Virus record (IMG/VR): IMGVR_UViG_3300005805_000245
Location: 1-34,918 of that record
Source: a virus
Taxonomy: Duplodnaviria > Caudoviricetes
Direction: 5' to 3' (one strand)
Length of the DNA: 34,918 bases
Shown: positions 1-27,600 of the stretch, in pieces
How the letters are laid out: every line of letters starts with the position of its first letter
Position numbering within the stretch: the first letter of the stretch is position 1
Program-made: the position numbers and the translations under genes
Notes under the pieces: model-generated
The model's input: only the letters and a program-made list of their open reading frames with translations
Database searches by the model: none
What the model was told of the DNA's origin: nothing

Positions 1-576
1 ATAAACAGAGGCAAAGAAGTCATCAGCAATGTGATTCGGGATGAAAGCGAACTCGTCAAGAAAGATGACATTATAGGATCCGCCTCGGACAGCAGATGAC
101 GAAGTAGAGTTAGATGAAATTTTGGAGCCATTTTCTAGTTCCAGACTACCTTTGTTCCATGATATGATACCTTGTTGCATCCACTTTGGTAAGTTTTCAT
201 AAGCAAGTTGTAATCTTCCAAGTAGGTCTCTTGCAGTAGATGCTTTGTTCGCTAGAATAGCTATATTAACATTATCGTTGAATACCGCATAATGTAACAA
301 ATATGAAACACAAGTAGTAGACTTACCTGTCTGACGGGGCATTTTACAGATATTAAATCTATTCTTGTGGAAATTGCTGATCAGTTTCTCTTGAAATGGA
401 TACATCTCAAAAGGCACTAGACCATGATCAAGAGACACGATCTTAATGTAGTTTCTAGCAAAATATACAGGATCTTCTTTACACTTTAAGAACTCAATAA
501 TTTGTTCTTCTGTAAATTCAATCGGCGTGTTGGCTTTTTTGAGCAGAGGATTGCCCAAATAAACATCACTAGACAT
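1..576 (-). CDS. gp17: Terminase large subunit (T4 gp17-like), 5' part; runs off the left edge of the window
   Basis: Not in the ORF track. Manual translation from ATG at 576: MSSDVYLGNPLLKKANTPIEFTEEQIIEFLKCKEDPVYFARNYIKIVSLDHGLVPFEMYPFQEKL...KMPRQTGKSTT (Walker A)...NVIFLDEFAFIP (Walker B). AAGGGGG RBS-like motif at 584-590; alternative in-frame ATG at 582. Confidence 0.97.
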   Translation of the reverse strand, partial: MSSDVYLGNPLLKKANTPIEFTEEQIIEFLKCKEDPVYFARNYIKIVSLDHGLVPFEMYPFQEKLISNFHKNRFNICKMPRQTGKSTTCVSYLLHYAVFNDNVNIAILANKASTARDLLGRLQLAYENLPKWMQQGIISWNKGSLELENGSKISSNSTSSSAVRGGSYNVIFLDEFAFIPNHIADDFFASVY

Positions 577-1054
577 ATTCATACCCCCTTTCTGGACCCC
601 AATGTTTCATTCTGTATGAGAGACCTTGTATTGTTATACCTACATCATCTGCAGCTTCTTGTTGAGAAACATAAACTTTTCCATTGATGGAAACTCTTTT
701 ACTGTTTGGGTGTTTTTCTCCACCCTCATACTTATGACCAAAAGAGCGACCTTTCAGTGCCTCACTTTTCTTTCTACAAGTTTCTTTACTATGTTTTCTA
801 CCAATGTTTTTTTGAGTTGCCTTATTTAAATTTTCCATAAACCAAGCATCATTATGCCACCCACACTTATGTATCTCCCTACTACAAACATATAAATGCT
901 CTGGAATATCTTTACCTCCCTCACATCTTGGGGGAAAATGATGAACATCCATACCTTTCATTTGTTCCCAAGATAGTCCCCAGTTTTTACGAGCAATATT
1001 TCTTACTGTTTTTGGACTTAACCTTTCTTTTGGAACTTTAACAATAGCAGACAC
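569..1054 (-). CDS. Free-standing HNH homing endonuclease with NUMOD3 and C-terminal NUMOD1/IENR1-like HTH DNA-binding modules
   Basis: DVHHFPPRCEGGKDIPEHL...IHKCGWH (HNH-like core), GRKHSKETCRKKSEALKG (NUMOD3-like), HPNSKRVSINGKVYVSQQEAADDVGI (NUMOD1-like HTH). GTG start; the stop overlaps the gp17 start by 8 bp. Confidence 0.88.
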   Translation of the reverse strand: MSAIVKVPKERLSPKTVRNIARKNWGLSWEQMKGMDVHHFPPRCEGGKDIPEHLYVCSREIHKCGWHNDAWFMENLNKATQKNIGRKHSKETCRKKSEALKGRSFGHKYEGGEKHPNSKRVSINGKVYVSQQEAADDVGITIQGLSYRMKHWGPERGYEYV

Positions 1055-1075
1055 ATTTCAATCCCAATCTAAAAA

Positions 1076-1083
1076 TATTTATA
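1076..1083 (-). promoter_or_regulatory. T4-type late (gp55-dependent) promoter TATAAATA upstream of the HNH gene and gp17
   Basis: Exact TATAAATA on the minus strand, about 20 bp upstream of the HNH GTG start. Confidence 0.8.
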
Positions 1084-1102
1084 CAAGATAAACTTCACTC
1101 AT
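1079..1102 (-). pseudogene. Relic of the original gp17 start: mini-ORF MSEVYLV* with a strong RBS
   Basis: Minus strand reads TAA AGGAG TTTAGTT ATG AGT GAA GTT TAT CTT GTA TAA. MSEVYL matches the current gp17 N-terminus MS-SDVYL(G). Confidence 0.75.
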
Positions 1103-1114
1103 AACTAAACTCCT

Positions 1115-2431
1115 TTATGTTAAATCATAAAAACTAACTGAACCAATACAATCAGCACTACCACTTACTGCTCTAGCTGCTAAAGTAACAATATCACTTA
1201 CTTTTGCTTGAGTTCTTCCAAGTTGTAAATCCCAATTATAATTGCTTTCAACATTCAATGGAACATCTGATTTATTTGCAGATGAAACAAAGTCATTAAA
1301 AATAATTTTACCTCCTGCAATTGTTGTTGCGTCTACATTAAATTGTGCGTTTGGAGTATTTGCCACAGTCCAGGTTGAACCATTTAAAGTTCCATTTTTA
1401 ATTAAAGCAACTTCCAATAATGCCGTTGACGCAGAACTACCTAAAAACGCAAATGACTTTGGAAGAATAATCGCATCTTCCCTTCCTGGAGTCAAACGAA
1501 TTGATACTAATGGAACAAAAGTAGTAGTGGCTATAGATACTGTTGTTGTTCTTCTCGCAACATCTCTTGCTAAAATCCTTTCATATCCTCCATTAGATTG
1601 AATGGATACACAAATTTGTTTTAATGTGGAAGATGATGTTGTAATACCAGTATTTAAAATTTCATAACGAACTGGAAGAGAAGCTGTGGTCATATAAACA
1701 CTATCAATAACATTAGCGTGTTCAAATCTGTGTGCCACGTGGAAATTACCTTCTTCGTGAGCAAATCCACAGCGAACGGCACCAACACCCAACCACTCAT
1801 ATTCAGTAAACATCAGTTGTGCTTTTGTCAGATCTAAATTATGATTGGTTGGATTTACTGTTCCACCAACTCCAGTAAAATTATCAACATTCCAATCCGA
1901 TTGTGCCACTCTAATTTCTGTGGTAATACCAGATTTTTTAGTTCGCATCATCCAGTATGCTGTAGTAATACCTGATGCGTTTGTTATTTGTTCCAAAAAG
2001 ACACCATTTTCAGATCCACCGTATCCAACTCTTTGTGTAAGATTTGGTTTTGGTGGTTCCATTACAAATGTTTGAAGAACTTGTAATGCTTTTCCTGGTT
2101 GATATGAAAATACTCGCTTACTTTCTCGAATAATAGAACAACCTGCAGTAGTTCCAATTCCTAATGTCGCAGTGCTTTGATGAGTTATAATTCCAACCGT
2201 AGATCCTACACCAAGAACCACATCATCAAAGTCTCCATCTTGACTATATCTGTGAGTGGAATCAAATAAAGTAAATGGTTGAGATACTTTTAATCTTCCA
2301 AATAAATCTCCAGAAAACCCTTGACCGAGTTGTTCAAATATTTTTCCTTGAGCATCTGCTTGCATGTATACCTCAAACAGAGTTCTTTCCTGATTGAGAT
2401 AATCTTGTTCATTCTTATTCCACTGAGCCAT
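1115..2431 (-). CDS. Conserved hypothetical, probable virion structural protein (beta-rich)
   Basis: 438-aa ORF between gp16 and gp17. N-terminus MAQWNKNEQDYLNQERTLFEV of the kind seen at this locus in cyanomyoviruses; Thr/Gly/Ser-rich; motifs SYQPGK, EWLGVG, YMTTASLPVRYEI. Confidence 0.7.
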   Translation of the reverse strand: MAQWNKNEQDYLNQERTLFEVYMQADAQGKIFEQLGQGFSGDLFGRLKVSQPFTLFDSTHRYSQDGDFDDVVLGVGSTVGIITHQSTATLGIGTTAGCSIIRESKRVFSYQPGKALQVLQTFVMEPPKPNLTQRVGYGGSENGVFLEQITNASGITTAYWMMRTKKSGITTEIRVAQSDWNVDNFTGVGGTVNPTNHNLDLTKAQLMFTEYEWLGVGAVRCGFAHEEGNFHVAHRFEHANVIDSVYMTTASLPVRYEILNTGITTSSSTLKQICVSIQSNGGYERILARDVARRTTTVSIATTTFVPLVSIRLTPGREDAIILPKSFAFLGSSASTALLEVALIKNGTLNGSTWTVANTPNAQFNVDATTIAGGKIIFNDFVSSANKSDVPLNVESNYNWDLQLGRTQAKVSDIVTLAARAVSGSADCIGSVSFYDLT

Positions 2432-2750: not shown

Positions 2751-5072
2751 TTAGTTACAGTTCCAACGACGAAGGGCTTTGTTGATTCTTGAATCTGGAT
2801 CTCTTGCAGTCTTTGCTGAAGTAAGTTTTGATTTCATTCCTTTCATACGGCGGCAGAATGAAGCACGACGCTTTGCTCTTTTTCCAGTTGGTTTCTTTTC
2901 AGTTACTGCAGTCTGAAGTTTTGAACCTGGATTTTCTCTGCGATATGCTTTAACAGCAGCGGGACTTAATCCATCAGTTTTATCTTGACGATTAACTTTT
3001 TGCCAATCTTCACTTAAACCCATTTCTTCTCTCCAATTAGAGAATCCTTCTGCCTTAACACAGTTTGGATATCTCTTTCCAAACATTGTCTTCATACCTT
3101 TTTTCTTATAACCAGGCCAACATTTTTCATCAATGACTTCACCTTCTATTTCGTATGAATTATTCAAAGCACGACGATCTTGTCTTACTCTCATAACATC
3201 ATCTCTGCTAAAAGCACCTTTAGTCCATGGATCATCATCAAGTGCTTGTTGTGCCTGACTTCTGTTTAAATTTGGAGTTTCTGGTTTTACTGTAGAACTA
3301 CCACCATATTTAATAGTTGAAGGTTTTGCTGGTGGGTTATAAGTAACTTTTCCTCCACCAGTTTTTAGTGGAGTTGATACAGATTTAGCAGTAGATTTTG
3401 CAATTTGGTCATCTACAGATTTGATAATTGCTTTACCAACTGGTTTTGCAGATTTCATAAGTCCTCTAGCTGCAAGTCTTGCAAGAAATCCAATAACTTC
3501 ATCAAGTTGTTCACCTTCTGGTTCATAACCAGCAACTTGAAGATCTTTTTTGAGTTCTTTTTTTGCTAAAGGAAGTTGTGGTCCAGTTCTTTTTAAGAAT
3601 ATTTCTTTTTCGTTTGGATTATCAGTCCTAGAACCTTTATTATAAATTTTTTGTGTTCTTTGTGCGTTCTTATGTGCTGCAGGATCAATAGGAGGTAGCA
3701 TTTGCTCATCAACACCTTGAAGTTTTCCTGCTTGTTTAAGAGCATTAATTCTTTGTCTTGGAGACATAGTTTCTTTTCTCTGCATAATTTTTTTCACTGC
3801 TACATCAAATGGTTTTTTATCTGACATGGTATCAGTGTCTGCAACCTGCTCCTTCATTTCGCCACTATCAACATAATCTGCTGCAGCATCAATATAATCT
3901 GCTGCCTTAGTAATTTTTGATTGAACCCATGCTTCTATTTCCCCTTCACCTTTTGCCATTTTTTTACGAAGTCTTTTTGCCGCTGCAATAATTGTAGAGA
4001 GTTCTGAACGAGCCATTGAATACTCATGATCATAAGATTCTGGAAAATTACCTGGATGTGGAGTATTTGGCGTATACTTCTTACCAAGACTCATTGGTAA
4101 TGAATACATATCCCAATAATTTGCTCCATATTTACACTCATCACGAGTCTCATTTTTTTGACATTTTGGACAATATCTCATCATTTCCATTGCCTCCGAT
4201 TTTGTTCCCCAATTAGCGGCACCAACTTTACGACACTTGACTAATGCTCCAGACGCATATGCACTTGGCCAAACATCATATCTTGACTTAACTTTATGAT
4301 AACAAGCATCTTTGGAACCACTACCTTTTCCTGGTTTATCTTTTTGTGCTTCGTTAAGTTCCATTGCTTCTTTAATTCCTGGTTCTGCCTTTACGTAATT
4401 TGGATCTTTTTTACCTTTTGCAAATGTAGGAACATTAGTTGGTTCTGCTGCCCCAGATTTTGCTTGCTGCCCTTTATCTTTTTGTCTCTTTCTACGAACT
4501 GCTGATTTAATCAGTGCTTCACCTTCTTCTCCTTTTCTTTTTAATGAAGCAAGTCTTGCACTACTAAAACATTTTGGAGTTTTAGTTTCGCCCGGTTCAT
4601 TAGCACAAGGAGAACCATCTGCTTGAACCCATCCAGGTTTTCCATCTTTTGATTTAGAACCTTTAAACCAATGATGTAAAGTGCCTTCTGAAACAGGGAC
4701 ATCTTTGAACTTTTTATGTTCTTTCTTTGCCTCTGCTTCCATTTTTTTCAAACGAGTATAATAATCTGGAATTTCATCTAAATGTTGAAGAGCAATATCA
4801 GTAGCAAGATCTTTATCTTTGGTATGCTCATGTTCAATTGGAACTCCCATTTTAAGTTGATTTTTTATGAAAGAAACTTCCATACGGTGTTTCTTTGCAA
4901 TCTGCTCAACTGTTTTATGAGACTTTACTTCGTGCATTTCATTAAATGGAGATTTTGATTTAGTCTCTTCACCTTTTTGCCTTTTTTTACGAGCGGCACA
5001 ATGAGCTTTCTGAGAAAATCCGTTTGGATTATCACAATCTATCGATCTTTTATATTTGTCAGACCAACTCAT
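2751..5072 (-). CDS. Large Lys-rich modular hypothetical protein (DUF5661-like module and several small Cys-containing modules)
   Basis: 773-aa ORF. Modules: IDCDNPNGFSQKAHC; QLKMGVPIEHEHT...IALQHLDEIPDYYTRL; DACYHKVKSRYDVWPSAYASGALVKCRK; YCPKC; EAWVQSKITKAADY; KCWPGY...PNCV; RRASFCRRMKGMK...RINKALRRWNC. Confidence 0.8.
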   Translation of the reverse strand: MSWSDKYKRSIDCDNPNGFSQKAHCAARKKRQKGEETKSKSPFNEMHEVKSHKTVEQIAKKHRMEVSFIKNQLKMGVPIEHEHTKDKDLATDIALQHLDEIPDYYTRLKKMEAEAKKEHKKFKDVPVSEGTLHHWFKGSKSKDGKPGWVQADGSPCANEPGETKTPKCFSSARLASLKRKGEEGEALIKSAVRRKRQKDKGQQAKSGAAEPTNVPTFAKGKKDPNYVKAEPGIKEAMELNEAQKDKPGKGSGSKDACYHKVKSRYDVWPSAYASGALVKCRKVGAANWGTKSEAMEMMRYCPKCQKNETRDECKYGANYWDMYSLPMSLGKKYTPNTPHPGNFPESYDHEYSMARSELSTIIAAAKRLRKKMAKGEGEIEAWVQSKITKAADYIDAAADYVDSGEMKEQVADTDTMSDKKPFDVAVKKIMQRKETMSPRQRINALKQAGKLQGVDEQMLPPIDPAAHKNAQRTQKIYNKGSRTDNPNEKEIFLKRTGPQLPLAKKELKKDLQVAGYEPEGEQLDEVIGFLARLAARGLMKSAKPVGKAIIKSVDDQIAKSTAKSVSTPLKTGGGKVTYNPPAKPSTIKYGGSSTVKPETPNLNRSQAQQALDDDPWTKGAFSRDDVMRVRQDRRALNNSYEIEGEVIDEKCWPGYKKKGMKTMFGKRYPNCVKAEGFSNWREEMGLSEDWQKVNRQDKTDGLSPAAVKAYRRENPGSKLQTAVTEKKPTGKRAKRRASFCRRMKGMKSKLTSAKTARDPDSRINKALRRWNCN

Positions 5073-9705: not shown

Positions 9706-9895
9706 TGATTAACTCCTTTAATAGGGACTTGATTTCATCAATATCTTTTTTCATATTTTCAATTTCTTGTTTTTGTGTCATTCTATTATTCACGACATTT
9801 ATATATTGATTATATGAATGATTATCGCAGTTAACTATGGCACCAGTCTGCTCATCACGATACAAATTAGGATGACCTTTTACTGGAATCATCAT
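9692..9895 (-). CDS. Conserved small hypothetical with C-terminal coiled coil
   Basis: VKGHPNLYRDEQTGAIVN followed by heptad-like EIENMKKDIDEIKSLLKELI; 4-bp overlap with the upstream gene. Confidence 0.8.
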   Translation of the reverse strand: MMIPVKGHPNLYRDEQTGAIVNCDNHSYNQYINVVNNRMTQKQEIENMKKDIDEIKSLLKELINGSR

Positions 9896-12800
9896 GCGAG
9901 TGCAATACTCCTCAAATCTTTAAATCTTGGAGCATATGCTTGATTTGTTCCAGACATGACAATCTTTATTGTATATCCAGTAAAACTACCCAAGTTGTTT
10001 GCACTAAATTCATATTCTAAGAATTGATTATCTAAACTTGGTGGAACAAAAACATCTGGAAGACCACTATTTTTAGATGGATCTATAACATCAAAATACC
10101 CATCTTGGTTATTATCAAGTGTGAGATTATTATATCCCGGGAATAACTCAAAGGATGGTTCTACTTCACTAGATTCTGGTCTAATTAAACTGTAGAGAAC
10201 TCTAAAATCTGCAGATGAATGCCTATAGGCACCTATAATCACCTTAAGAGCAGTTGCAGGTTGAGCAAGTCTTACAGTGTTAGAAATATAAACAGCGGCA
10301 TGTGGGTCATTTAAGACGTTGTTAGCACCGTTTTCAAGTGCGTAGTCTAAAATAGGTCTATTTAGTCTGTTGCTTAAAAACTCTACTGAAGACTCTTTCC
10401 AGAAAATAATTGGAGATAAGTTAGTATCTGATGTTGACAAATCAACCTTCATAGTAAATGATTTATTTCTGAGAAGAGATGCCAAATAGGTTTGCTCATT
10501 TATACTAGAGCAAACAATGCGAGTAGAAGTTAATCTATTTTCAGCACCTAATTCAACATTTTCATACCCTTGATCAACAAAAGATGATTCATTACCATCT
10601 ACACTAGTTCCACTAACAGTTCTAATTTGACCATTTGCGGTTGTTGCAGATCCTGGACTTAATAGGGCAATTTGAGGAGTAACAGCATTAAATTGAATAT
10701 TTTCTGTTGCTTGAATGTTATTACCACCACATGAAGATTCATTATTAAATGATAATTGTGGGAACTGAGAGGGTGTGTTATCTACTGAACGATCCACACC
10801 ATTTGAAGATCTATCAACCTCAATATAGTAACTATCAATGTCATTACCAGTTTCACTAACTGTATGAGTTTTATTAATTCTTCTTAAAGACACGCCACCT
10901 AATTCATACTTATATACACTAGTATTCAAATCATGGGTAACTGTAAGAGTTGAATCTGTCCCTCTTGTAATTGTTTCTAAAGCACCAATACCAATACTTT
11001 CATACTTAATAATTTCATTTTCAATTTTTACATATCCTGGGTTTGTATTATTTACAGATTTTCCTTCAAATGTGGCAAAATTTGATGTAGATGCAACACT
11101 GATTATTGTATCAGAAGATAGTAAAGGTGCAGATAATGTAGTTGGTACTACATCACTTTCAACATCTACAATAGTAACTTTATTGGTGCTGGAATACATT
11201 CCATGATCATAATGATTGACTTTAAAGAAGTTTCCAGAATAAACTCCGCCAACTGCAGTAGAAGATGTAATTGTAGTATTGGCAAGTGATACTAAATTGC
11301 CCGAAGTATCATAGTATGATAAAGTTGCTACCCCAACATTAAAGGAGTTTCCTTGAACATTTGATAGATACAAGGTATCAATACCAGTTCCAGTACCAGT
11401 AATCGTAATTCTGGCATTACGACCACCAACAGGACTTACCGATGATGTAACAATTCCAACTACATCACCTGCATTATATCCACTTCCTGGACTTAAAGTT
11501 GATACTGCAACACCAGTAATTACTCCATTAGTTGCGGTAATATTTAATTTTAAACCACTACCACTTCCTGTCACATTAAATGTTTGAACTGAACCAGTTG
11601 TAGTGTAATTACTTCCACCTGTAGTAATTCCGACAGTGGTAACAGAGGATCCAGTTCCAACAATATATCCATAATTATATGGTGCAGATTGGACAGAAAC
11701 TTTTCTTCCAGTAGTCAAAATTCCAATCATTGCAGAACTTGTTACAGTAGTAATGCCAAGATTAACTTTTCTTGGTAAAATTGTAATTGGATTGGCACTT
11801 AGAACAGGAACATAACTATTGCTTTGATTTAACGTTGGATTATGGAATAGGGCACTACCCGATGTAGAAGTAAAGTTTGCTTTATAAAGTTTAAATTTGA
11901 GATCTTGATATTGATTTGCTGTCCAAATTGATCCATTTTGCGATTTGAACAAACTTCCAATTCCAAATTGTCTGGAATATCTTACTGCCTGAGAATCCGG
12001 AAGATTGGCAGTTTCAATAGTTTTTTCTCCCATTTCCGCAATCCAAACCTCATATTGATCTGTTTGGGGGGCAAGAAGAACTATTGCATATTCTAAACCT
12101 GGTTCAAGATAAATTGGATAATCAAATGTAACTCTTGTTGGAACAGATGCATTAGATGATATTTGAATATCGCTTGGTTTTAAAGTTACTGGTTTCCCAA
12201 TAATTGTTCGTGTAGGAGTTCCAAGTTCTACAGTTCTTACTTCAACAGTTAATGGTGCATTATTCTCATCTTTACTTGCAAAGAACAAATCTACAGCAGT
12301 TAAAAATGCCCCATTTACATCTTCATTTGGTTTATTACCATTTGTTGCTTCAGTGACACCACCAACTGAGAATGATTGTGCAAGAGGATCGACAAAGTAA
12401 ATTGTTGTAGACGAAGTAGTAACTCTTTGCCTTTCTTCCCAAGTTCCTTCAGATTTATAAATTGTCTCTGCAGAAGAAATTAAAGTGCTTCCTGGAAGTG
12501 GAGTTTGGTTTGTGGAACTAGAAGATAATTTATAAACTTTAGATCCCGTAGCAATTCTAACTGATGGTGGTGGATTTGTATTTGGATCTCTTAGGAAGAA
12601 AGATCCTGAGAGGAATCCATTAATGTCACTAATTAGTCTTAAATCTTTTACATAAGCAATCGCACCACTAGTTTGTCCAACAAGTTTCATACCAACTGTT
12701 AAGTAACCAGAATATAGTCCTTGTGCTTCTAAACATAAAGATTCAATATCAACGTTTAAAGTTTTAGAAGATGCACTGTAGGATGCTGGAATTGTTTCCG

Positions 12801-15800
12801 AAGTTGCATATGGATTAGTTGTATATGTGACAGATGGATTATTAAAAGCACCTTCTTTATGATTTGAAGTAGATACTCTGAAGTTAATTAAGTTATTTCC
12901 ATTAAATGATCCAATAACAGTTTCTCCCACTTGGAAAGCTGCAGATGCTCCATAATTTTGTAATGTAGAATCATTTGCAATCTCAATAAGTTTTGGAATA
13001 AAATCAACACCACTATTACCATCCAAGAATTGGTAAACTCTTGTTAATGGTTTCAGATTTACTGCATTAAATCCAGTATTTCTGGATCTCATGTATATCT
13101 CTGCACCACTTGCAATTAGTCTATCTTCTTGGGATACATTTGTTGATTGACCAACAACTGCAAAAGTTCCAGTTGCTCTCAACCAAACCCAATTAGTTTG
13201 ATTAATATTAACATCTTGAAGTCTAATGGTTCTTACCCAACTATCACTAGATGGATTTAAATTAATCGTTCCACTATAAGAAATAACATGGAATGGATTA
13301 ACATTTTCAACCTTTGTTGCAAATGTTTGCTCAATCCACCCTACCGAATCATATTTTAGAGTAATTGCATCGCCTGTTTTTTGAACATTTGAGTCATATA
13401 AAGAAAAATTAGTATTTAAATCTAAATTTTCATCTGTTAGATTTTCCGCCGAAACTGGTTTTAAATTAATACTATTTTTAGAAATACGTGTAGTAAGTTC
13501 ATCGTTTTCTACATCTACTTCTACTGTAGATAGATTTAGATTAATTAAATCAGAATTTTTAAAATCATCTACAAAAAATCCAGTTTTAAATCTATTAAAA
13601 CCTTGAGCATCTTGAATTTGTAAAGTTTGAGTATTTAATTCAAGTAGAGATAATGATGTTACTCTCTCAAGATTCTCAACTCTATCTTCAATTTTACCAA
13701 TGTCACGCATTGTGTATCTTCTATTATCCATTAAAGATACATTAACATCCTTTGGATTATAGAGATATGGTGGAAGTGTAATGGTAGCAATTTCCATTAC
13801 ATCACTCGGTTTGCTTGGTTCTTTTGGATTTATTGATGGAGTTCCTTGAAGAACAGTAAATGTTCCTAATTTATCAAGATATAATTTATCAATTCTTCCA
13901 AGATAGAATTGATATCCAATTAACGCACTTTCATTTGGCGACATAATAAGTTTTGGTTCAGTTCCAAATGATCTTGAAGAGAAGTCAAATGGAGATGAAG
14001 AAGACCCTGTAAATACAGATACTCTAGGTCTAAAATCTAACGTATCAGATGCTCTTAGATTATTTTGTCCAATAGTTGGGATATCAGAAGAAAATCTTTC
14101 TTCCGAGTAACTGTTTACTGTAAATACATCTCCAGTATCACTAGATGGGACAGAATAATAGTCAAATACAATTAAAAGTTGTCTTGATGGTGAAGATTCT
14201 CCAGTTTTTCTAATAATTTTGGAATAATCGTAATATTGTTCTTTTTGTCCTTTATCTAATGTATATTTAAATGTAATATCTCTATATTTTCCTAATGTAA
14301 TCGCTGCAATTGGGGTATTAATACCAGATTCTTCAAAAGTTACATTTTCTCCAGATGTAAATCTACTATTATTTAAATAAACAATTCCTAAAGTATTTGA
14401 TGATGGTTTAGTTACAACTCTTGCTATTGCACTACTTGTGCTTCCGATAATATTTTCGCCAATTATAGCATTTGAATCTACATTTGCTATAGAAGTAAAT
14501 GAAATTTGGTCTAATATAGGAGCACTAGTATCTAAAGATTCATATATTGCAATAATTTTTACAGCATCTGGATAGTTAAGACTAATTTCTTCATCTTGAA
14601 CTCTTAAACCATAAGATTGATTATAACTTAATCCATCATTAATTGAGGTATTAATTCCTGTTCCAGACTGAGGATCTTTGGAAAAAACTACATTTATTGA
14701 TTGAGATCTTATAAATTGTTTTATTTTACTCTGAACCCCACTCTTTACAAAAGTGGCATTTATTGAAGAAATTTGTTTGTTTTGAATATTGGAAAAAGTA
14801 ACTTGACTTGAACTACCATTTAAGGTAACTTTATCTGACGTTAATGATTCTATAGTTCCATCAGCATAGAAAATAGAATATCTTTCTTCATCAAAAGCTT
14901 CAAATCTTATAGTAGAAGAATTAATTCCAATATTAAATTGTCCTGTTCCTACAGTTAAAGTATTAGATGATGGTGTGAATGAAGTATTAGATTGTGCAGA
15001 AAATGTTATTGTTGATGTGCTTAAGTCTGTCGATGCAATATTTGAATCTGGCAATTCTGCATATAAAAATCCTTTTTGATCATTTCTAAATTTAGCAGAT
15101 CCAACTGCATATGATCCACTAAAAGTTGTTGCTGTTCCTGGAAGTGATCCATCACAAACTCCAGAAACAGATGTGACTGCCTCCAAAGTTAGTGAGTTTA
15201 GTGCTGATGAAACGGAAATAACACGATTATAAATTTCTGTTGCTACACCAGATCTTTGGTAACGAATTATATTATCAGTTTTGATTCCAATAAATGATGC
15301 CGGAGAAGCAACAGTTGCTGTGCTCACACCACCACTTGAGGCGCTAATAGTTATAATTTCAGACCTAGAAATTCTATCAAGTTGAGTGTCTGATAAAAAC
15401 GCTGTAGAAAATCCAGATACTGCAGTTGGTTGATGAACCGATTTAATATCTTCTATACCATAAACTTTAATTGATGAGATTGTTCTAGGATATAGTTCCA
15501 ATCCATTTATCAAAATTTGCTCTCCAACTGCAAATGTTCCTGATCTTTGTCTGATATTGATTACAGTTGAATTTGATCCAGCAGAAACTACATAACCACT
15601 TGCTCCACTACTCTTTCCTTTTATGAAAGAAGTTGCAGGAACTTGAATTGCAGATACTGCTTGATTTAATGTAAGTTCAGTGTAAGTTTGAACATCATAT
15701 AAGTATAAATCCCAGTTAGTTGCTGCAGAACTATATGCAGCATCAGTTACATTAAAACTATAAACTCTTGCAGATCCTATTGTAGACCCTGCACCTAAAG

Positions 15801-17076
15801 TTGTACTATTTTTTCTTTGACCTTGTAAATAAATTTCTTGTTTTTGTTTAGGAGTTCCACTTACATTATTAACTCTCAATAAATTACCCATTTCAAATGG
15901 GATATTTGCATTAGATACTATTTGCTTAGTTCTTGGTTTGGGAACATCTATGATTTCAACACCCGTTTTTTCAATATCATATCCTCTTACATAAGCTTTT
16001 CCTGGAGAAAACTTAACACACATTAAATCATCTGATGGTGTATTTCCTTGTTCTGTTTTTTCATTACTAAAAAATAAACCATCATTTCCAAGTCTATCAT
16101 TTAAAGAATTGTTTAATGAGAATTGGAAAGGAGTGACTACATAATCTCCAGATTCATCATATGTTCTTTGTGCTAGATAGTCTCTAATCAAAGAATAACT
16201 TGATTTTATTTCTACCTTTTTAATTGCACCATTTTTAACTCTTAAGAGTTCTACAAAATCAGTATCAGTTGTATCTGTTAAAAGTTTTTTGGTTAAAGTT
16301 AAAGAAATTTTAAATCTATCTGCACCAGGCGCAGCATAGTTAGTAAATCCTTTTGCATTGTCGTATAGTGATGGATCATCTTTAGCAGTTATAATCTGCT
16401 CATCTACTCTTAAACCAACTCTATATGAAGGAGTATTGGTATAATAATCTAAAATAATTGTTTGTTTAGGAACACGAACAAAAGATCCTCTAATAAAATA
16501 AACACCTTCTCCAATAGATGCTGCAGATCCAGTTGCAGTTGCATCTGAGTTTACAGTTGTTGCAAAAGGAGTTCCAGCAATTATTGATCCTATTGTTTCA
16601 CTAGCAAATAATTGCTCATTGTTTTGGAATGGATTGATTTCAAAATTTGAATCTGAATTAATATATTTGACATACAAAGTTGCATATTCAACTCCTAGGC
16701 CCGGATTAGGAAGTTGAACCATCTGGACAGTTGCTGTAATACCAGATATTTGCCCTGTTACCTTCTTACCAACAAAATTAGATAAGTATGATGTTATATT
16801 AACATTATACTGTTGAGGATTAAGTTTAACTGCATTAAACTGATCATCAAAGGTAATATTTCCAGGAATAACTAAAGATCCCTCTTTAAAAATATGACTT
16901 CCAAATGTTTCTACTTGATCTTGCAGTATTGACTGAAGGGTATTTAATTCCCTTGCTTGTATTGGTTTTCCTGGATTAAAAAGAACTTTATAATAATTTT
17001 TATCCCTTGCACCCGTATCTTTTTCTGCAAAGTCGTCAAAATATGGACTTACATTAAGATTAGTTTTTTGAGCCAT
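9892..17076 (-). CDS. Large virion structural protein, VrlC/DUF4815-like
   Basis: NLNVSPYFDDF...VLFNPGKPIQARELNTLQSILQ...APGADRFKI...RTYDESGDY...NRRYTMRDIG...RFKTGFFVDDF...DPLAQSF...SLFKSQN; position after gp8 as in cyanomyoviruses. Confidence 0.88.
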   Translation of the reverse strand: MAQKTNLNVSPYFDDFAEKDTGARDKNYYKVLFNPGKPIQARELNTLQSILQDQVETFGSHIFKEGSLVIPGNITFDDQFNAVKLNPQQYNVNITSYLSNFVGKKVTGQISGITATVQMVQLPNPGLGVEYATLYVKYINSDSNFEINPFQNNEQLFASETIGSIIAGTPFATTVNSDATATGSAASIGEGVYFIRGSFVRVPKQTIILDYYTNTPSYRVGLRVDEQIITAKDDPSLYDNAKGFTNYAAPGADRFKISLTLTKKLLTDTTDTDFVELLRVKNGAIKKVEIKSSYSLIRDYLAQRTYDESGDYVVTPFQFSLNNSLNDRLGNDGLFFSNEKTEQGNTPSDDLMCVKFSPGKAYVRGYDIEKTGVEIIDVPKPRTKQIVSNANIPFEMGNLLRVNNVSGTPKQKQEIYLQGQRKNSTTLGAGSTIGSARVYSFNVTDAAYSSAATNWDLYLYDVQTYTELTLNQAVSAIQVPATSFIKGKSSGASGYVVSAGSNSTVINIRQRSGTFAVGEQILINGLELYPRTISSIKVYGIEDIKSVHQPTAVSGFSTAFLSDTQLDRISRSEIITISASSGGVSTATVASPASFIGIKTDNIIRYQRSGVATEIYNRVISVSSALNSLTLEAVTSVSGVCDGSLPGTATTFSGSYAVGSAKFRNDQKGFLYAELPDSNIASTDLSTSTITFSAQSNTSFTPSSNTLTVGTGQFNIGINSSTIRFEAFDEERYSIFYADGTIESLTSDKVTLNGSSSQVTFSNIQNKQISSINATFVKSGVQSKIKQFIRSQSINVVFSKDPQSGTGINTSINDGLSYNQSYGLRVQDEEISLNYPDAVKIIAIYESLDTSAPILDQISFTSIANVDSNAIIGENIIGSTSSAIARVVTKPSSNTLGIVYLNNSRFTSGENVTFEESGINTPIAAITLGKYRDITFKYTLDKGQKEQYYDYSKIIRKTGESSPSRQLLIVFDYYSVPSSDTGDVFTVNSYSEERFSSDIPTIGQNNLRASDTLDFRPRVSVFTGSSSSPFDFSSRSFGTEPKLIMSPNESALIGYQFYLGRIDKLYLDKLGTFTVLQGTPSINPKEPSKPSDVMEIATITLPPYLYNPKDVNVSLMDNRRYTMRDIGKIEDRVENLERVTSLSLLELNTQTLQIQDAQGFNRFKTGFFVDDFKNSDLINLNLSTVEVDVENDELTTRISKNSINLKPVSAENLTDENLDLNTNFSLYDSNVQKTGDAITLKYDSVGWIEQTFATKVENVNPFHVISYSGTINLNPSSDSWVRTIRLQDVNINQTNWVWLRATGTFAVVGQSTNVSQEDRLIASGAEIYMRSRNTGFNAVNLKPLTRVYQFLDGNSGVDFIPKLIEIANDSTLQNYGASAAFQVGETVIGSFNGNNLINFRVSTSNHKEGAFNNPSVTYTTNPYATSETIPASYSASSKTLNVDIESLCLEAQGLYSGYLTVGMKLVGQTSGAIAYVKDLRLISDINGFLSGSFFLRDPNTNPPPSVRIATGSKVYKLSSSSTNQTPLPGSTLISSAETIYKSEGTWEERQRVTTSSTTIYFVDPLAQSFSVGGVTEATNGNKPNEDVNGAFLTAVDLFFASKDENNAPLTVEVRTVELGTPTRTIIGKPVTLKPSDIQISSNASVPTRVTFDYPIYLEPGLEYAIVLLAPQTDQYEVWIAEMGEKTIETANLPDSQAVRYSRQFGIGSLFKSQNGSIWTANQYQDLKFKLYKANFTSTSGSALFHNPTLNQSNSYVPVLSANPITILPRKVNLGITTVTSSAMIGILTTGRKVSVQSAPYNYGYIVGTGSSVTTVGITTGGSNYTTTGSVQTFNVTGSGSGLKLNITATNGVITGVAVSTLSPGSGYNAGDVVGIVTSSVSPVGGRNARITITGTGTGIDTLYLSNVQGNSFNVGVATLSYYDTSGNLVSLANTTITSSTAVGGVYSGNFFKVNHYDHGMYSSTNKVTIVDVESDVVPTTLSAPLLSSDTIISVASTSNFATFEGKSVNNTNPGYVKIENEIIKYESIGIGALETITRGTDSTLTVTHDLNTSVYKYELGGVSLRRINKTHTVSETGNDIDSYYIEVDRSSNGVDRSVDNTPSQFPQLSFNNESSCGGNNIQATENIQFNAVTPQIALLSPGSATTANGQIRTVSGTSVDGNESSFVDQGYENVELGAENRLTSTRIVCSSINEQTYLASLLRNKSFTMKVDLSTSDTNLSPIIFWKESSVEFLSNRLNRPILDYALENGANNVLNDPHAAVYISNTVRLAQPATALKVIIGAYRHSSADFRVLYSLIRPESSEVEPSFELFPGYNNLTLDNNQDGYFDVIDPSKNSGLPDVFVPPSLDNQFLEYEFSANNLGSFTGYTIKIVMSGTNQAYAPRFKDLRSIALA

Positions 17077-18686: not shown

Positions 18687-21600
18687 TTATAAAGTCTTTT
18701 TAATTGGTCCAATATTTCTCAACCCATACCCTCTTCTCTGTATTGTTGGTAAAGTTGTAAGACCAGAATTAATTGTAAATCCAGAAACTGCAATTGATAC
18801 TGGAGAAGATGACCTTGAGAATCCTGATAGTCTACCCCAAGAAATTTTTCCAACTATAGATCCTGTTGTAGCAAGACCAACTACAGAGGTTGTCGATAAA
18901 ATATTGCAAGTAACTATTCCAACTGAAGAATCAAAGGCGCTGACATTGTAAATGTTATCGACACATGTAGTTCCTATTCCAATTTTTTCAGCATCGGATG
19001 TATAAATTGAAGTAACTCCATTTCCTACAATTGTATCAAAAATATAAATTGGATATCCAGCACTTAATCCTGTGAATGGCGATAATGAAGAATCCAGTGT
19101 AAATGTAATAGAAAGAGGAGTTCCTATTCCACCAGTTGTTCCAATACCTGTTATATTTCCAGAAAATCCTTCAACAGTAGTAACACTTGTAATATTTTCA
19201 TAAGTTAGATCTGGCAATGGAACAATAACTTGAGGAGGTCTACTGACAGAATATCCAAATCCAGAATTTGTAATTGAAATTGGAGTAGAGAGAGATCCAT
19301 TTACAACAGAAATATTAGCAGTTGCTGTTGTTCCAATACCAACACCAATTTGTTTTGGTGCTGATATTTTAACAGTCACTGATGATCCAGTATAACCACT
19401 TCCAGCATTTACAATAGACAAGTTTTGAATTGTTCCATTAGCAGATACAATTGCGGTAACTGCCGCAGAAACAGGATCAGCAGATCCAGAAACTATTAGG
19501 GCATCAAAATCAATTTGAGGAGATGAAACATTCTCATAATTAAAGAACTGTGCATTATCAACAAATACTTCAGTATCAGTTGTTGAGAAATTTTTAATTA
19601 TTTTTGCTGTTGGATAAATTTGAGGTTCAATAGAATCTCTTGCTTTAGAAACAACTTCACCATCAATAATTTTATCTACTTTTTGTTTTGTCCAATATAA
19701 TGGTTTTTGATTATTGATATCTATACCCTGTTCGAGGTATATGTTTGTTTTAATTTTATCAGATGTTGTAATTTCAGAAACTGTTCTAGAATTTTGTGTT
19801 GTAGTAATTCCAAGAGAATTATTGTTACTGAAAACTTGAACAGTATCACCCTCTTTAATTGTTTCAAAAACATTTATTGACGTGCTATCTTGAGCACTTC
19901 CTCTATAGAAGAAAATTGATACGTTATCTTCTGCTTTTGGTGGTTCTGCGAACACAAATGAAGTTCCACCTTCAAATTGATATGATACACCTGGTTTTTG
20001 TAAAATACCATTAATAAAAATAAGAAGAAGTGAGGCAAAATCTATAAGTTGAGAATCAGAACTTGGACCTTTTTCAAAACTCAATAATTGTGAGTTATAA
20101 TAAAGTGGGAACCTTGTTCTTGCACCATCTTGTAATGCTTCTATTGAATCAATATAGTCAAGTTCTCCAAATTGCCAAGAAGAGAAAGAGTCACTAAAAG
20201 TTTCTAAAATAGTTAATTCAAAATCAGAAATCGGTTGAGACAATCCAGAAGCAGTTACAAGTCCAACTGCTTTAATAACATCACCTTTTTTAAATCCATA
20301 ACCACTTCTTGTAACTTTAAATCCAGTTACTTCAAACATTGTAGAACCTATACCCGTTGTTGAACTTGCACCAACTTCAACATTTAATAATAAACCTATT
20401 CCACAATCAGTAGTAGCGCCAATACTTAGTCTTGAAACTCCAGTAACAGATAAATTAGAATAATTTGGTGGAGATATATTAATAGTTGGATTTGTATAAC
20501 CAGATCCTCCACCCACAATTGTAAATGCTAGTGTTCCACCTGCACCTACATTGGCAGTAATTGTTGCAGCAGATCCTGTGTGTCCATACTCAGTTACAGC
20601 AATTGAAACAGGATTTCTATAACCAGATCCCCAGTTTCCGGTTGTTCCTATGCCAATTGATGTAATTGATCCCCCAACACCAATTATTGCTGTTACAGAG
20701 GCACCAACCAGAGGAGCATAACCCAATCCAGGTGTAGAACCTAACGATACAATAATACCGCCTCTAGGAAGTTGATTCATATTTACATCGGATTGTGAAA
20801 TAATTACAGATCCGTTTGAAGATGTGATACCAGAGAAAATAATGCTACTAATTCCAACAGACGTGTTTTCAACAATTCTAAAGTTATTATTTGTATTATT
20901 CTCTGTTGTTGGTGTTTGGAATATTCCATTTATTATGACAATTCCATTTCCACCACTAGTTCCCAATCCTACAGTGTTTCCACCACCAACAGTTAGAGTG
21001 TAAGTTTGTCCTATTCCGGTAAAGTTTTCTGAAATATTGTCATAAACTTGATTTGATGTATAATCAGTTCTTAAAAATACTCTACCATTGAAATATGCTT
21101 TATCTTCTGGTAAATTATCATTATCTCCAAATAATTGATCTTCAAAACTACCTTGAGGTGCTTCAGTAAAGTAAACTTTATTCTTTGCAATATTAAATGA
21201 ACCTCTATAGAGATTTACTGAACTTGAGTTGGAGTGTGTAGTAGATGCACTTCCAACAAAACCTCTCCTTACATTTACCAGTGGGAAAGTTCCTGCAAAA
21301 GAAATTGGTCCCGCATAAGTTGTTCCTAAACCAACATTAACAACTTTCATATATTCATTATCAATTTTTAAAATATCACCAGGTATAATAGAAGAAATAC
21401 CGCTTAAAGCAAAAATTGTAGATGCAGAACCTATTTGAGTATCATTATTAACTGTATAATTTAATAATGAATATGCAATTGGTGCTTGAATAATATTGTT
21501 AATTGAAATGATCGATTTTTCATTTTTCTTGACCATTTCTAATTCATGTGCATTTCCTGCACCAATAGAAGTAAAAGTCACCGCAATTCCGGAGGTTGCA

Positions 21601-24600
21601 TATTCCTTTCTGGTAGCAATTCTAAATTTATCATTATTATCTTTAATTGCATATACTGTAGTTGGAAGTATATCAGTAACAACTCCAACATAATTTAATG
21701 TTGAACCAATACCTACCGATACTGGTGTTATTCCGAAGAACGTTGAATTTGGTCTATAGATTAATTCTTCACCTGTGCTAAAGAAATGGTTGTTAATACT
21801 AAATTGACCTGTTGACAAATCCAATATTGAAGAATCAGATGGATTAAATGTCTTCATGAAAATTGGTGTGCCATTATAGAACATGTCAAAATCGAGTTTG
21901 TTTAACTCATCACTATTAACAGCATAGTATTTTGAAACTCCAACAGATTCAATAACATTATGATATTCTAAATTAAGAGGTGTATTTTCAATCGCATAAT
22001 CATTTTGAGAATAGAAAATTTGATTAAAGTTTAATATTTCAAACGTTCCAACAAAGTTATTATCTGGATAGAATTTTAATGATGCTGTAGATCCAGAAAC
22101 CTCTCCACCAAAAGTTCCAATTCCACTATTAGTGTTAACAGAAAGGAAAGGATATTGAGTTGTATAAGTATTAGTTCCATTTGAAATCATTAAAACTTGA
22201 TGTAAAGCACTAGTCTGACCAATACTTACTTTTATTAATGACTTAAGTGATGTAAACTCGGTAATATCAAATGATGCAATACTGGAAGATGCAGAAACAT
22301 TTGAATAAGAAGAATTATACCAAACAGTTTTTTCACTATTATCTGGTTGACCAGATGCTTTAAACCTATAAGTTCCTACCCCAACAGCAGTTGTTCCAAA
22401 TCCTACGTTTCTAGATCTAATTGTAACTGAGTTATTTGAAGTATTGGTGTAATTTAGTGATAGAATTCCTCCATCTATTGACGCACCAAAAGTTCCTATA
22501 AAGTTAGAACTACCTCCTGTTCCAGTGTCAAAATAAAACTCAGACAAATTAGTATTTGTTCCATCATGATCTAAGAATAATTCAACATAATTCATTTCAT
22601 TAGTTACATTATCAATTAAATGGAACTCCGAATAAACTGATTTTATTAGAGATTGTGAACTTTGCAGTATATTTGCTGTAGATCCAGTAGAAACTGTCGA
22701 AGTAATTCCACTAAGATTAACAAATCCAACAGAGGTGCTTCCAACTCCAGTTGCAAAGTTTCCAAAAGAGGTATTTACATACTTAATATTATAAGTTGTA
22801 TTATATGGATCTTCTGGATCAAATTTTAGGTAATGACTACCTAGATTATCAACATAACCACTTATATCACCTAATTGATTAGTTGTATATGAAATTTCTG
22901 AAGAGAATCCAACATTTAATGTTCCCCTCTCTAATGTAAATATATCTGGTTCCGTTGGATCATTATCATTTAAAACAATGACTTCTGTGAGTTGATATGT
23001 GGAATAATCCTTATCAGAAATTTGAACCAAGTATCTATTATATTTTCTTGATTCGATAATCTCTGTTATTTTTGATGAAGTTTCAATATCTTGATCATTA
23101 TTTGAAAATTCATCACTAATATCATCTATCTCAAGAACTCTATTTGTACGACATTCAATATAATCTGCGAGTCTCTTAGATGTGAATTTTAAGAATCTAG
23201 ATGAATCACCGAGAGTGTCAACATCAAAGACAAGATCAAAATTATTAATTGTATCTACTCTATTTTCATCAATTATATCAAATAAAACGGTTGTATACTC
23301 TTCTACAGTTGTTGTTCCAACGCCAACATTGTTTGTTATTTGAGTGTCTGCAAAGTTTTTAAGTCCACTTACATGTAGTAATCCATTTACTGGACTTACT
23401 ATATTAGTCCATTCTTGCTCACTCTTTACAGAATATGAGAGATTTTGATAATAATCATTATCTGCAATAACTTGTGTGTCTTCATCTAATTTTCCAATAT
23501 CATCAGACCATCCTATTCTTTGATTAGATGCATAATTAATATTAAATTTACCAGTTGAAGTATTAATAGAATCAACCGTTGCTATTGAACCAGATTGTGA
23601 ACCACGAATAATTTGATTTTTTTGAAGATCATAATTACCAGATACTTTAATGTAATTTTCATTAGATTCAACAATTCTCAAATCTTCTTGTGAAAATCCA
23701 ATATCAGTTTTTACTTCTAATATTTCTCCAATAATAAATTGAGCAAAATTCTGAACAACTTCAAATCTTGGATAATTATTATAATTTATTGCTGATCCAT
23801 ACAATCCTTGCGTGGTTTTTGCAATACCAATATTTGTGCTGAATCCAGATAAACTAAATTCAAGTTTTCGTGCTAAAGTTGTGCCGCCGTTAAGATAATT
23901 TGAAACCGTAAAGAATCTATATCCATAATCTTCTGAATTAAATCCATCTCCTTCACTACCATATTTTTCAATTCCTTCTACATAAATTTTATCCCCTGTT
24001 GTAAATGGTTCTGTGCTAAATCCAGTTAGTGGAGTTACCAAAAGGCATGTGACTATTCCAGATGATGACGATTGGACTGTTTGAATTCCTATTCCATTTG
24101 TATTATTAGTCGCTCTTATGGTAACATTTGATTCTGGTAATCCTTTAGGTGGTTGAACTACTGAAACTGAAAATATAGAATTTCCATAATAATTTGCAAC
24201 TAATAAACCAGAATCAATTTTTTCTCCAGTATCTGTATTAACAATAACTAAGTTTGGTGCTGAAGTATAATTTTTTCCACCATCAATAACGGTAACTTCA
24301 TTAAGTGTGTTAGAATTTTTTATTGTTACGGATTTTGGTAATGATGCCTCTGGTTGCAGGGTTTTATCTGAAGAATATTCAAAACCTTCATTAATGATCT
24401 TAATTTGATTAATTTTACCAATTGTATTGGACTTTGGAATAATATAAGCTCCAGTTCCAGAGGTTGAACCAATTCCCTCAAATACTGGTAATTTTTTAAA
24501 GTTGACTCCTGGCGAGATTGTTCTTACTTTTGAAACTCCACCAAAATCTGAAGTTGAATTAGTAGTATATTTGATAATATCACATTCAGATCTTGCATAT

Positions 24601-27600
24601 GAATTTTTTTCTGGAGATTTTGTCAGAGATATATCAAAAGTTGTAGATCCAATTCCACTAACTTTATATGAACCATTATAATAACTATCAATAAAATTAA
24701 TTTGTGAATAATTTTGAACTTCGGTGTCTGCAGTGCTAATATATCCCGATTTTTCTAATGAATAGAATAATATTGATGGCAATTCTTGACTGTAATTAAT
24801 TGTTAACGAAGAATTTGTGGAAACTCCAACTGTGCCAACACCACTTACTGAAATAGTGTTTGTTGATCCAGTAGATACAAATTCATCTTTAAAATCTTTG
24901 TCATAAAATACTTTAAATGTATATCCTGATAGAGAAGAATCCGTTAAATCGAATACAAGGTTATTATTTCTTACAACATTTAGAGATGGGTTTACTAACG
25001 AAATATTTTGTAAAGTTCCTCCAGTGCTTGCAATACTTACTGTATTTGGTGGTGTTGTCTCTACACAGTCAATGTAAGTTTCCGCTAGTTTGATATTATT
25101 ATCATCGACTTTATAAACAAAATAAAATCCAGTTGATAATCCAGATGCAACTAAGTTTGCAGAATATTTAACTTTATCTCCTGTTTTTAATTTGTGAGAA
25201 TTAAGTGTAATGGTATTTGTTGAGGTATTAATTCCAGAAGAACTAAAACCTATATTATTAATTAAAGGATATCCTGTAGAAATATCTCTTGTAACTTTTA
25301 CCGCAGTGGATGTGCCTACCCCTACAGAAAGATTGGGATTAATTGAAAGAGTTATTGAATCTCCAGAAGAAAGACTATGTGAAGTTGATAAAGATACTCT
25401 AGAAGTAATTTTTTCAATGTCTCCCTTTACTTGAGAATAATTAGATTGCAACAGATATTGATAAGTATCAGACCCATTGGATAAGAAGAATAAACCGTTT
25501 GTTGATGTTGTTAACCCTACCTGAGTTACAATTCCAATGTAATCCACAGATTTTCTAATTACAAATACGGTTTGACTATCCCCGCTAAATGGTAAGTTAA
25601 ATGCAGAACTTTCAGATGTATTTGCAACTGAAATTGCAGATGCTGATGAAGGTTTTATTAAAGTTACTAATTGATTAGTTTTAAATGGATGATTTGGTAA
25701 GTAAATTGATTGTGTAGGAATAGAAATTATATTATTAGTTTGAATACCAACATTATAAGTTACTGCAACTCCAACTCCGGAGGTTGTTCCAACACCAACA
25801 GATTGCTTTGGATTAAAATAAACTAAATCATTATTTTTAGAATCAAAATAATTTACTGATTTATCAATTATAAAAGTATCTGGTATAAAGTATATCGGCG
25901 TAGTTGCTGTATGTCCTGTTCCAGAAACTCCCCTAAGAACTCTAATTATATTTTGAACATCAAAAATGTTTAAAACTGATAAAGTTTCTGTCCCAATTCC
26001 AATGCTACTTCCAATAGAAATGTTCTTTGGAACATTAGAAATATAAATGTCTGTAACAATTCCACTTCCACTTGAAGATGGAAGATCTTTAATCAAAGAT
26101 GATGTATAAGATGTTACCCCAATCTGATGGAATCCATTTAAAACTGATAAAGATGTTGAAAATCCAGAAACACTAACATAGTCTAGATTTCCTAAACTAT
26201 GTCTAGGAGAGATTTTTGCCTTAACTTGATTGCCATTTTCCCAAGTAAATACAGCATCATCATATGATGTTGTTGAAGTTTGGATATCTACAATATCTTT
26301 ACCATTAATTTCAAATACTTGTGCTATTAATCCGCCGCCTTGTGTTTCACTCTCATCAAATTCTAGGGTATCACCAACTCTATAATTATTTCCAGACTTT
26401 ACAATTTCAAAATCATCAATTGATCCAGAAGTAACTGACTCTACAACTGTTACTTGATTAACAACCTCATTAGACTCAGTTATAAAATCATTATTTGCAT
26501 ATAAATCATTAACTTTATATGGGAAAGTATTGCGAATTAATTTTGAATTATTAAAGTTAAAAGATTGATTTAAAGATGTATTTTCCGAAATAAATTTAGA
26601 TCTATATCTGTCTCCAATAAAATATGGAAAACTACCAACAACATTATTTTGATTATCAATTATAGAAGTAGCAAAGTATGCATAAACACCATTTGGAAAC
26701 TCTGGAGTGACACAATATCTGCCATTGTATTCATCCAAATCTCCAGAATTTGTAAACTTATAATCATCAATAAAAAATCCAGCAGAAAATCCAGATGGTC
26801 TATTTGAAACATTAGATACGTCTAAGGTATAACCAGAAGTTAATTTTTTCAGAGATGAATTTTTATCTTTTGGATTGGAATATCCATATGATCCATAAAT
26901 TGGATTTCCATCATATGCCCATCCAATAATTGGTGAGTGCTTAGTTCCATCGTCTCCAAAATCACTTTGAACAACTTGTGAATAACCACAAATACTGTAT
27001 TGTAAATTATTATAAGAAGATTTTATTAATTCGTTTGCCTCTGAAGATGTGCTATTGGCATCATTATATAAAACATTATTATTAATATCTAAAGATCTTA
27101 CTTGAGGGTCAAAAATAACATTTTTACCAGCTGATGTTACTGTAATACTAGTATTAGATGTAGAATAACCTACCCCAGAACTTATGACAATTACATCGGT
27201 TATTTTATTGTTAACTATAACCGGTTTAAGAACTGCTCCTGTTCCAATTCCAGAGACATTGATATCTGGAGTTGAATAATATTCACTTCCACTATATTGG
27301 ACCGAGATATCTTGTATTGTCCCATTAACAATTATGGGTTTAAATTGTGCATTTTTACCATTTTTAACTGTAATTGATGGTTTTTTGTGGTAGTTTAAAA
27401 TAGTTGATCCATAATCTGAACCTTCATTATAAACATATGCATCTACAATTTCCCCTCTTATAATTGGAGTTGCATTAATAGATCCTCTAAATTGAGTGCT
27501 CCCTAAACCTACTGCACCATATTCAACTTTGAAGGTTATTTCTGGATAATTAAAAATATGATAACCAGTTCCTGAAGTTTCACCTAATTTAATGAATTTT

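Follow-up and report, generated by a model that had tools for sequence, protein, structure and literature searches.

Here, we describe a mobile cassette that occupies the start of terL, the gene for the terminase large subunit (gp17), in a T4-like phage contig. The window, by which we mean the whole 34,918-nucleotide (nt) stretch of virus record IMGVR_UViG_3300005805_000245, has its nearest cultured matches among Synechococcus and Prochlorococcus myoviruses, and the host is presumably a cyanobacterium. The cassette is an intron-less unit of about 555 bp, comprising a promoter motif, a gene for an HNH-like protein, a new ribosome-binding site (RBS) and the recoded first 15 or so codons of terL, and it is mobile between otherwise unlike phages. 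The best explanation, to which we assign a probability of roughly 0.8 on sequence comparisons, is that this is a homing cassette that invades its host gene by replacing the gene's start. On this explanation, a selfish nuclease can occupy an essential gene without splicing and without splitting the protein.

Anatomy and boundaries of the cassette

The region is read entirely from the minus strand, a point that the first-pass annotation had not stated, in the order upstream gene, stub, nuclease open reading frame (ORF) and terL (table 1). The upstream gene stops at 1117-1115, and the ATG at 1102 then opens a peptide, MSEVYLV, that reads only to 1079, its TAA falling inside the motif TATAAATA. 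The first-pass annotation had described just such an orphaned RBS and broken start, and the coordinates bear it out. The same layout of AGGAG followed by ATG precedes an intact terL in the nuclease-free relatives L119, L124 and L134. The second start, ATG 576 (MSSDVYLG; beginning MSSDVYLGNPLLKK), overlaps the end of the nuclease ORF by 8 nt, and the RBS claimed for it is indeed present in the last nuclease codons; an ATG at 582 was not accepted for terL, as it lies 1 nt from the RBS and is missing in many relatives. The reported match of 13 of 16 nt between the two starts is exact, in silico deletion of 555-1083 restores the frame with the peptide originally given, and a search of both strands for the terL-start-like peptide pattern found just two sites in the window.

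Pooling of the fetched loci gave 269 distinct terL starts, of which 45 carry the nuclease (occupied) and 224 do not (empty). By our scoring, nuclease and terL overlap by 8 nt in 35 of the 45 and by 11 nt in seven. The arrangement is not an assembly artefact, since 37 of 38 IMG/VR loci with the nuclease ORF lead into a terL start, the 38th reaching the contig end. Counted from the Tyr codon, terL has its full length of 543-560 aa in 20 of the 22 occupied relatives with a closed ORF, and it runs off the sequence in another 23.

Table 1. Features of the terL start region, with coordinates in the window.
Feature	Coordinates	Strand	Remark
Upstream host gene, virion structural protein, phrog_1645	1115..2431	-	outside the mobile unit
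Original terL RBS, AGGAG	1110..1114	-	now serves the stub alone
Stub, original terL start, 6 codons + 1 nt	1084..1102	-	identical to 11/220 empty-allele starts
Putative T4-type late-promoter motif, TATAAATA	1076..1083	-	left edge of cassette; gives the stub its stop codon
Leader of nuclease gene, weak GGGA RBS	1055..1075	-	0.93-0.98 identity, 24 close relatives
Nuclease ORF, 161 aa, GTG 1054 to stop 569	569..1054	-	open reading frame
N-terminal HNH-like domain of nuclease, aa 1-85	800..1054	-	H38, H39, G47, L54, H62 and H67 invariant
C-terminal I-TevI-like DNA-binding domain of nuclease, with tail encoding the new RBS	569..799	-	PF20987, E 1.2e-6
Replacement RBS, AAGGGGG, within nuclease E-R-G codons	584..590	-	sequence
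Replacement terL start carried by the cassette, some 15 codons, recoded	530..576	-	right edge falls within about 532-517
Terminase large subunit (gp17), first 192 codons	1..576	-	runs off the contig end

Identity to the window delimits the unit on both sides. In 24 close relatives, it is low on the upstream side of the stub (0.25-0.38), intermediate within the stub (0.68-0.78) and high across the promoter motif and leader (0.93-0.98). On the terL side, the first 30 nt from the Tyr codon show identities of 0.95/0.89 in occupied alleles against 0.78/0.63 in 53 empty alleles; the excess is slight over the next 15 nt (30-45) and absent past 45 nt. These profiles place the unit at about 1083 to 530. 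Of the span 555-1083 first proposed, the left edge stands and the right edge moves some 25-40 nt further, to about codon 15 of terL.

The left side is less uniform. Left junctions were scored in the 41 occupied loci with a visible 5′ side, and in 28 of these the stub ends, as in the window, one base past the Tyr-Leu codons. Stubs of another kind occur in four (MSEV; MV; a longer stub minus the Leu-Gly core; an Asn-rich stub), three have the promoter motif without a stub, and six distant members (57-66% identity) lack the motif, their nuclease starting where the terL ATG sits. Insertion at codon 7, as annotated, is the junction of one clade, the other 13 loci having different left junctions; the constant feature is the right end. 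Junctions without a stub are seen in L024, L210 and L021, and the TAA of the promoter motif in L024 appears to be the stop codon of the upstream gene.

The stub itself appears to travel partly with the cassette. Mutated stubs, MSEFYLI (L012 and L014) and the MSDNIY-x-I type (five loci), are absent from empty alleles; they track the cassette tree although the upstream genes differ, and several branches show a change of stub type. We read this pattern as crossovers at or inside the stub and hence as the mark of a very short left homology arm.

The motif TATAAATA is presumably a promoter, by analogy with T4. The window holds three minus-strand copies and none on the plus strand; two lie 27-30 nt before gene starts, and the cassette copy lies 29 nt before its own. 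That the element brings its promoter with it, as the annotation held, agrees with the occurrence of the motif within 100 nt upstream in only 1 of 222 empty alleles.

Splicing is unnecessary for expression of terL, since the second start is complete and has an RBS. A group I intron or ribosomal bypass, in which the stub would be exon 1 and terL would be rejoined to it, could appeal to a stub that can end in U and an insert that can end in G, to a cut at 556-1084 that is also in frame, and to the spliced terL genes of phage ICP1 mentioned in the accessible text of PMC10448857. It is barely credible here: an Rfam scan to E 10 returned three chance miRNA/lncRNA matches and no intron family that would supply a self-splicing ribozyme core, and the ORF takes up 486 of the 529 nt, leaving 43. 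Moreover, nine of the 41 loci have no stub to act as a 5′ exon, some stubs are mutated, and the joined form that was observed is DNA. One DNA contig links 1084 to 540 through 14 letters of empty-type codons, a weak link with a short side of only 21 nt. A 151-nt contig from an oligo-dT RNA library (963-1113, unspliced, depth 3) was left out of the count: DNA is a possible origin, and just 30 nt of it lie on the side of the stub. The second run with an RNA label probably represents DNA. The core of the annotation, invasion without splicing through a donated N-terminus and RBS, is supported.

Empty alleles and movement between phages

Nuclease-free relatives run from the RBS and ATG straight into terL, as had been expected. 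The stub is recognized as an old terL start because its 19 nt are identical to the start of 11 of the 220 empty alleles with a placed ATG. Among 80 loci fetched through the upstream gene, 51 include terL, and the nuclease is missing in 50 of the 51. The nearest empty allele (L119) has an upstream protein 75% identical to that of the window and a start that matches the stub at 17 of 19 nt. We also looked for empty alleles that combine MSSDVYL with the stub and saw none: MSSDVYL occurs in one of the 220 (L052, which keeps the last 13 nuclease codons), and no stub-like short ORF precedes the nuclease-free terL starts in the 207 alleles with at least 300 nt upstream.

L052 and L041/L042 have lost the nuclease by deletion and kept its last codons with the RBS and the replacement start; their hosts seem to be locked into the parasite's translation signal. 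Others (L040, L124/L125 and L133) are nuclease-free, yet have the occupied-type spelling of codons 5-14, possibly through co-conversion without the gene or through precise loss between the two start copies.

The histories of the cassette and of the phages that carry it differ. The cassettes of L027, L028 and L029 are 97.5-98.6% identical, with terL bodies at 74-90% and upstream regions at 24-35%, and those of L002 and L006 are 100% identical against 85% for the terL body; the converse is seen in L011 and L027, with 99% for the terL body and 77% for the cassette. On a tree of terL bodies (159 of 211 usable rows, 41 occupied and 118 empty, the latter at least 80% identical to an occupied row), presence of the cassette requires 35 changes. 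Well-supported branches force 18 of these, and clustering does not exceed that of shuffled labels (128/500). The 34 promoter-bearing loci span 15 upstream clusters. Two of 34 nuclease copies are frameshifted and two remnants were seen; L220, flagged as broken by an ungapped test, has an open frame of about 160 aa. The element is optional, patchy and mobile, with empty alleles and decay products, as are T4-like free-standing homing endonucleases.

This distribution also bears on whether the gene might be a domesticated nuclease that serves the terminase as a packaging accessory, of the HK97 gp74/GVE2 type. The ORF adjoins terL and comes with a late-promoter motif, purifying selection acts on it (median dN/dS of 0.055 in 30 comparisons to the window), and HNH genes beside terL are documented in the available portions of PMC10448857 and PMC12724721. 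A packaging accessory of that type would be expected beside terL in all members of its phage group. The cassette is missing from all 120 pattern-sampled terL starts, and no cultured carrier was found in 50,697 phage records, cultured cyanophages included; the cultured-phage matches are to the DNA-binding domain only, at below 60% identity, in enterobacterial phages. Together with the scatter on the tree, the homing-type DNA-binding domain and the broken and remnant copies, this makes a packaging role highly improbable.

The nuclease, its likely target and the proposed mechanism

The protein had been annotated as HNH/NUMOD, of which the second half is the more direct. PF20987 (I-TevI_DNA-bd) is its sole Pfam match, PHROG places it with homing endonucleases (phrog_314), and 1i3j is the best match of the C-terminal domain both by profile and by fold. 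None of the fold matches reaches significance. The assignment of the N-terminal domain as an HNH-like nuclease is indirect, pointed to by distant homologs, of which 20 of the 40 scanned match PF01844 (Pfam HNH) at E<=0.01, by the invariance of H38, H39, H62 and H67 over 116 sequences, and by a confident model of the first 85 residues (pLDDT 91) whose weak fold matches are mostly HNH nucleases. A nuclease domain joined to a NUMOD/I-TevI-type DNA-binding domain is also the architecture of T4-like free-standing homing endonucleases. In the tail that overlaps the RBS and ATG, R148, W152, G157 and Y158 are invariant in the 34 family proteins. A large distant family (L226-L278), in which the nuclease domain alone is common, occupies many other phage loci and often overlaps the start of the next gene; none lies beside terL among the matches listed.

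The spelling of the terL start suggests a target. At the Leu-Gly codons, CTTGGT is found in 92 of 224 empty alleles and in none of the 45 occupied ones, and the Leu codon is TTG in 37 of 45 occupied alleles against 24 of 224 empty ones; TTG also prevails in 11 of 12 distant members below 76% identity. The stubs retain CTT in 25 of 28 cases. In L025, the N-terminal peptide is the same as that of its empty sister L109, but is written with CTC-GGC for CTT-GGT, and the longer stub of L211 misses just the Leu-Gly core when compared with the common empty spelling. The CTTGGT spelling of empty terL is thus the likely target, and the recoded start is likely to protect the cassette from re-cutting, an idea of the annotation that these counts favour.

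We propose that the nuclease, expressed late, would act on empty terL alleles, with a predicted cut or nick near the Leu-Gly codons (CTT-GGT). In the ensuing repair, the right end of the cassette would pair with the conserved terL body and its left end with the short ATG-region stub, the only left homology available, since upstream genes differ between phages. The recipient's own start would be left behind as a dead stub, terL would be translated unspliced from the RBS and ATG of the cassette, and the synonymously respelled start would resist re-cutting. The spare start would be a terL start captured from an earlier host and occasionally re-copied from new hosts, which we prefer to one built de novo. 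The overlap makes it possible that translation of terL is coupled to the nuclease ORF, as the annotation had suggested; such coupling is not needed, as terL has its own RBS. More speculatively, the stub adjoins the late promoter and would make up the left half of the target, and it might also serve as an operator for autorepression in the manner of I-TevI.

Several observations weigh against homing by start replacement. The exact empty allele of this phage was sought with an upstream-plus-stub pattern and gave 0 matches in IMG/VR. If each stub mirrored the start of its present host, it should resemble the best upstream-matched empty allele more than its own new start, and this is only half borne out: 15 of 29 fit, 12 show the reverse and two are ties, with an exact match in one. 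Such a split agrees with stubs that are carried along in part. The window protein has no Pfam HNH match of its own, its fold matches are individually weak (best Z 3.4; Foldseek E 0.34, not significant), and all 34 close family proteins carry His at position 53, the place of Asn in the wider consensus. As for the target, CTTGGC occurs in five occupied and 24 empty alleles, and the Fisher P values (1e-9 and 1e-21) overstate independence because the 45 occupied loci share descent. For the MobA element of T4, polymorphisms alone did not block nicking, according to the part of bioRxiv 10.1101/2022.08.31.505936 that was available. Immunity by recoding is, on these three grounds, likely but unproven.

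The junction between the upstream gene and terL is, moreover, mosaic among empty sister alleles too, and general recombination therefore explains part of the scatter. Taken further, this would make the gene an ordinary free-standing endonuclease that cuts at a distance or not at all, carried by passive recombination at a mosaic boundary, with the stub a one-off scar and the recoding merely the spelling of a donor. For the free-standing enzymes of T4, the accessible text of PMC2988022 gives cut sites that usually lie hundreds to thousands of bp off, and TTG-Gly is found in 24 of 224 empty alleles. Distant cutting would not, however, give a shared tract that ends 30-45 nt past the Tyr codon, and passive shuffling does not account for the exclusion of CTTGGT even at 55-75% identity and after host re-copying, nor for several distinct left junctions, each positioned at the terL start or immediately ahead of it. 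We consider passive carriage unlikely and continue to favour homing with start replacement.

Known systems and surroundings of the locus

The closest parallel in principle lies outside phages, in the mORFs of fungal mitochondria (Allomyces macrogynus atp6; Glomus atp6, atp9, cox2 and nad3). As described in the accessible part of PMC3630166, these are intron-less endonuclease genes in essential genes that bring a foreign, largely synonymous copy of a terminus and leave the native piece orphaned. The cassette, too, has a foreign terminus copy and an orphaned native piece. The mORFs replace the 3′ end over 51-298 alignment positions and encode LAGLIDADG or GIY-YIG enzymes, whereas the cassette replaces the 5′ end over only about 15 codons with an HNH-like gene; because the 5′ end is replaced, it must supply an RBS and a start codon, and encodes both in its own last codons. 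The cassette works like an mORF but is not a member of that group, being N-terminal, HNH-like and phage-borne.

Among T4-like phages, the nearest system is the T4 MobA element, which splits topoisomerase genes 39/60. Judging from the available portion of bioRxiv 10.1101/2022.08.31.505936, it shares with the cassette an HNH gene, an N-terminal extension supplied by the element (its overlap with the nuclease ORF is 8-32 nt in MobA), a diverged homologous region that takes the place of host codons and is copied anew from hosts, a variable left and a fixed right edge, and pseudogenes and remnants. MobA inserted mid-gene, giving two functional subunits and a 50-nt ribosomal bypass; in the cassette, by contrast, the upstream piece is a six-codon dead stub and one whole protein is made, terL being open from 576.

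The seg and mob genes of T4 and mobE in Aeh1 nrdA are further cases of intronless homing and, in the accessible text of PMC2988022, resemble the cassette as free-standing genes with late promoters that overlap their neighbours and embed host signals favouring retention. They cut far from the insertion site or split the host protein, while the insertion site of the cassette, in the first codons, is its predicted target. An RBS-sequestering hairpin of the T4 type was not found, since none of eight folds surpassed its shuffled controls (z -0.75 to +2.1). The 'N-terminal duplication' of PMC7315562 refers, in the part available, to copies of the following exon at the 5′ end of an intron, a different geometry. 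We found no description of 5′-end replacement by a free-standing phage endonuclease in the literature searched, which left out most subscription papers.

We tentatively suggest that gene-start replacement is a general third route into essential phage genes, besides introns and inteins, with the stub as a functional micro-homology arm; a carried stub of 19 nt would allow homing into phages whose upstream genes are unrelated, and raises the question of homing with less than 20 nt of homology on one side. Since the RBS of the host gene sits inside nuclease codons, the cassette is hard to delete. The target is short and sharply predicted (terL codons 5-15), and nature supplies pairs of presumably sensitive and resistant alleles that differ synonymously. 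Stubs and overlaps also cause mis-called starts in terL, a widely used phage marker gene.

At least half of the region is contained in six sequencing runs. All six are metagenomes of lake, lagoon or freshwater origin, produced by three studies, and two of them are possible sources. In two cassette-bearing loci (L016 and L213), terL stops at codon 287-288, with endings that may be akin to the N-halves of split inteins. Two loci (L014, which also has the start cassette, and L161) carry an in-frame terL insert directly after the RQTGK Walker A motif that begins with Ala (ALSLDTP...) rather than Cys or Ser; it resembles an intein by its motifs, not by a database match. Elsewhere on the minus strand of the window, 2751-5072 encodes a 773-aa protein in which small modules recur (DUF5661, DUF6321; phrog_727), and the structural region includes ORFs of 3974 aa (18687-30611) and 2394 aa (9892-17076).

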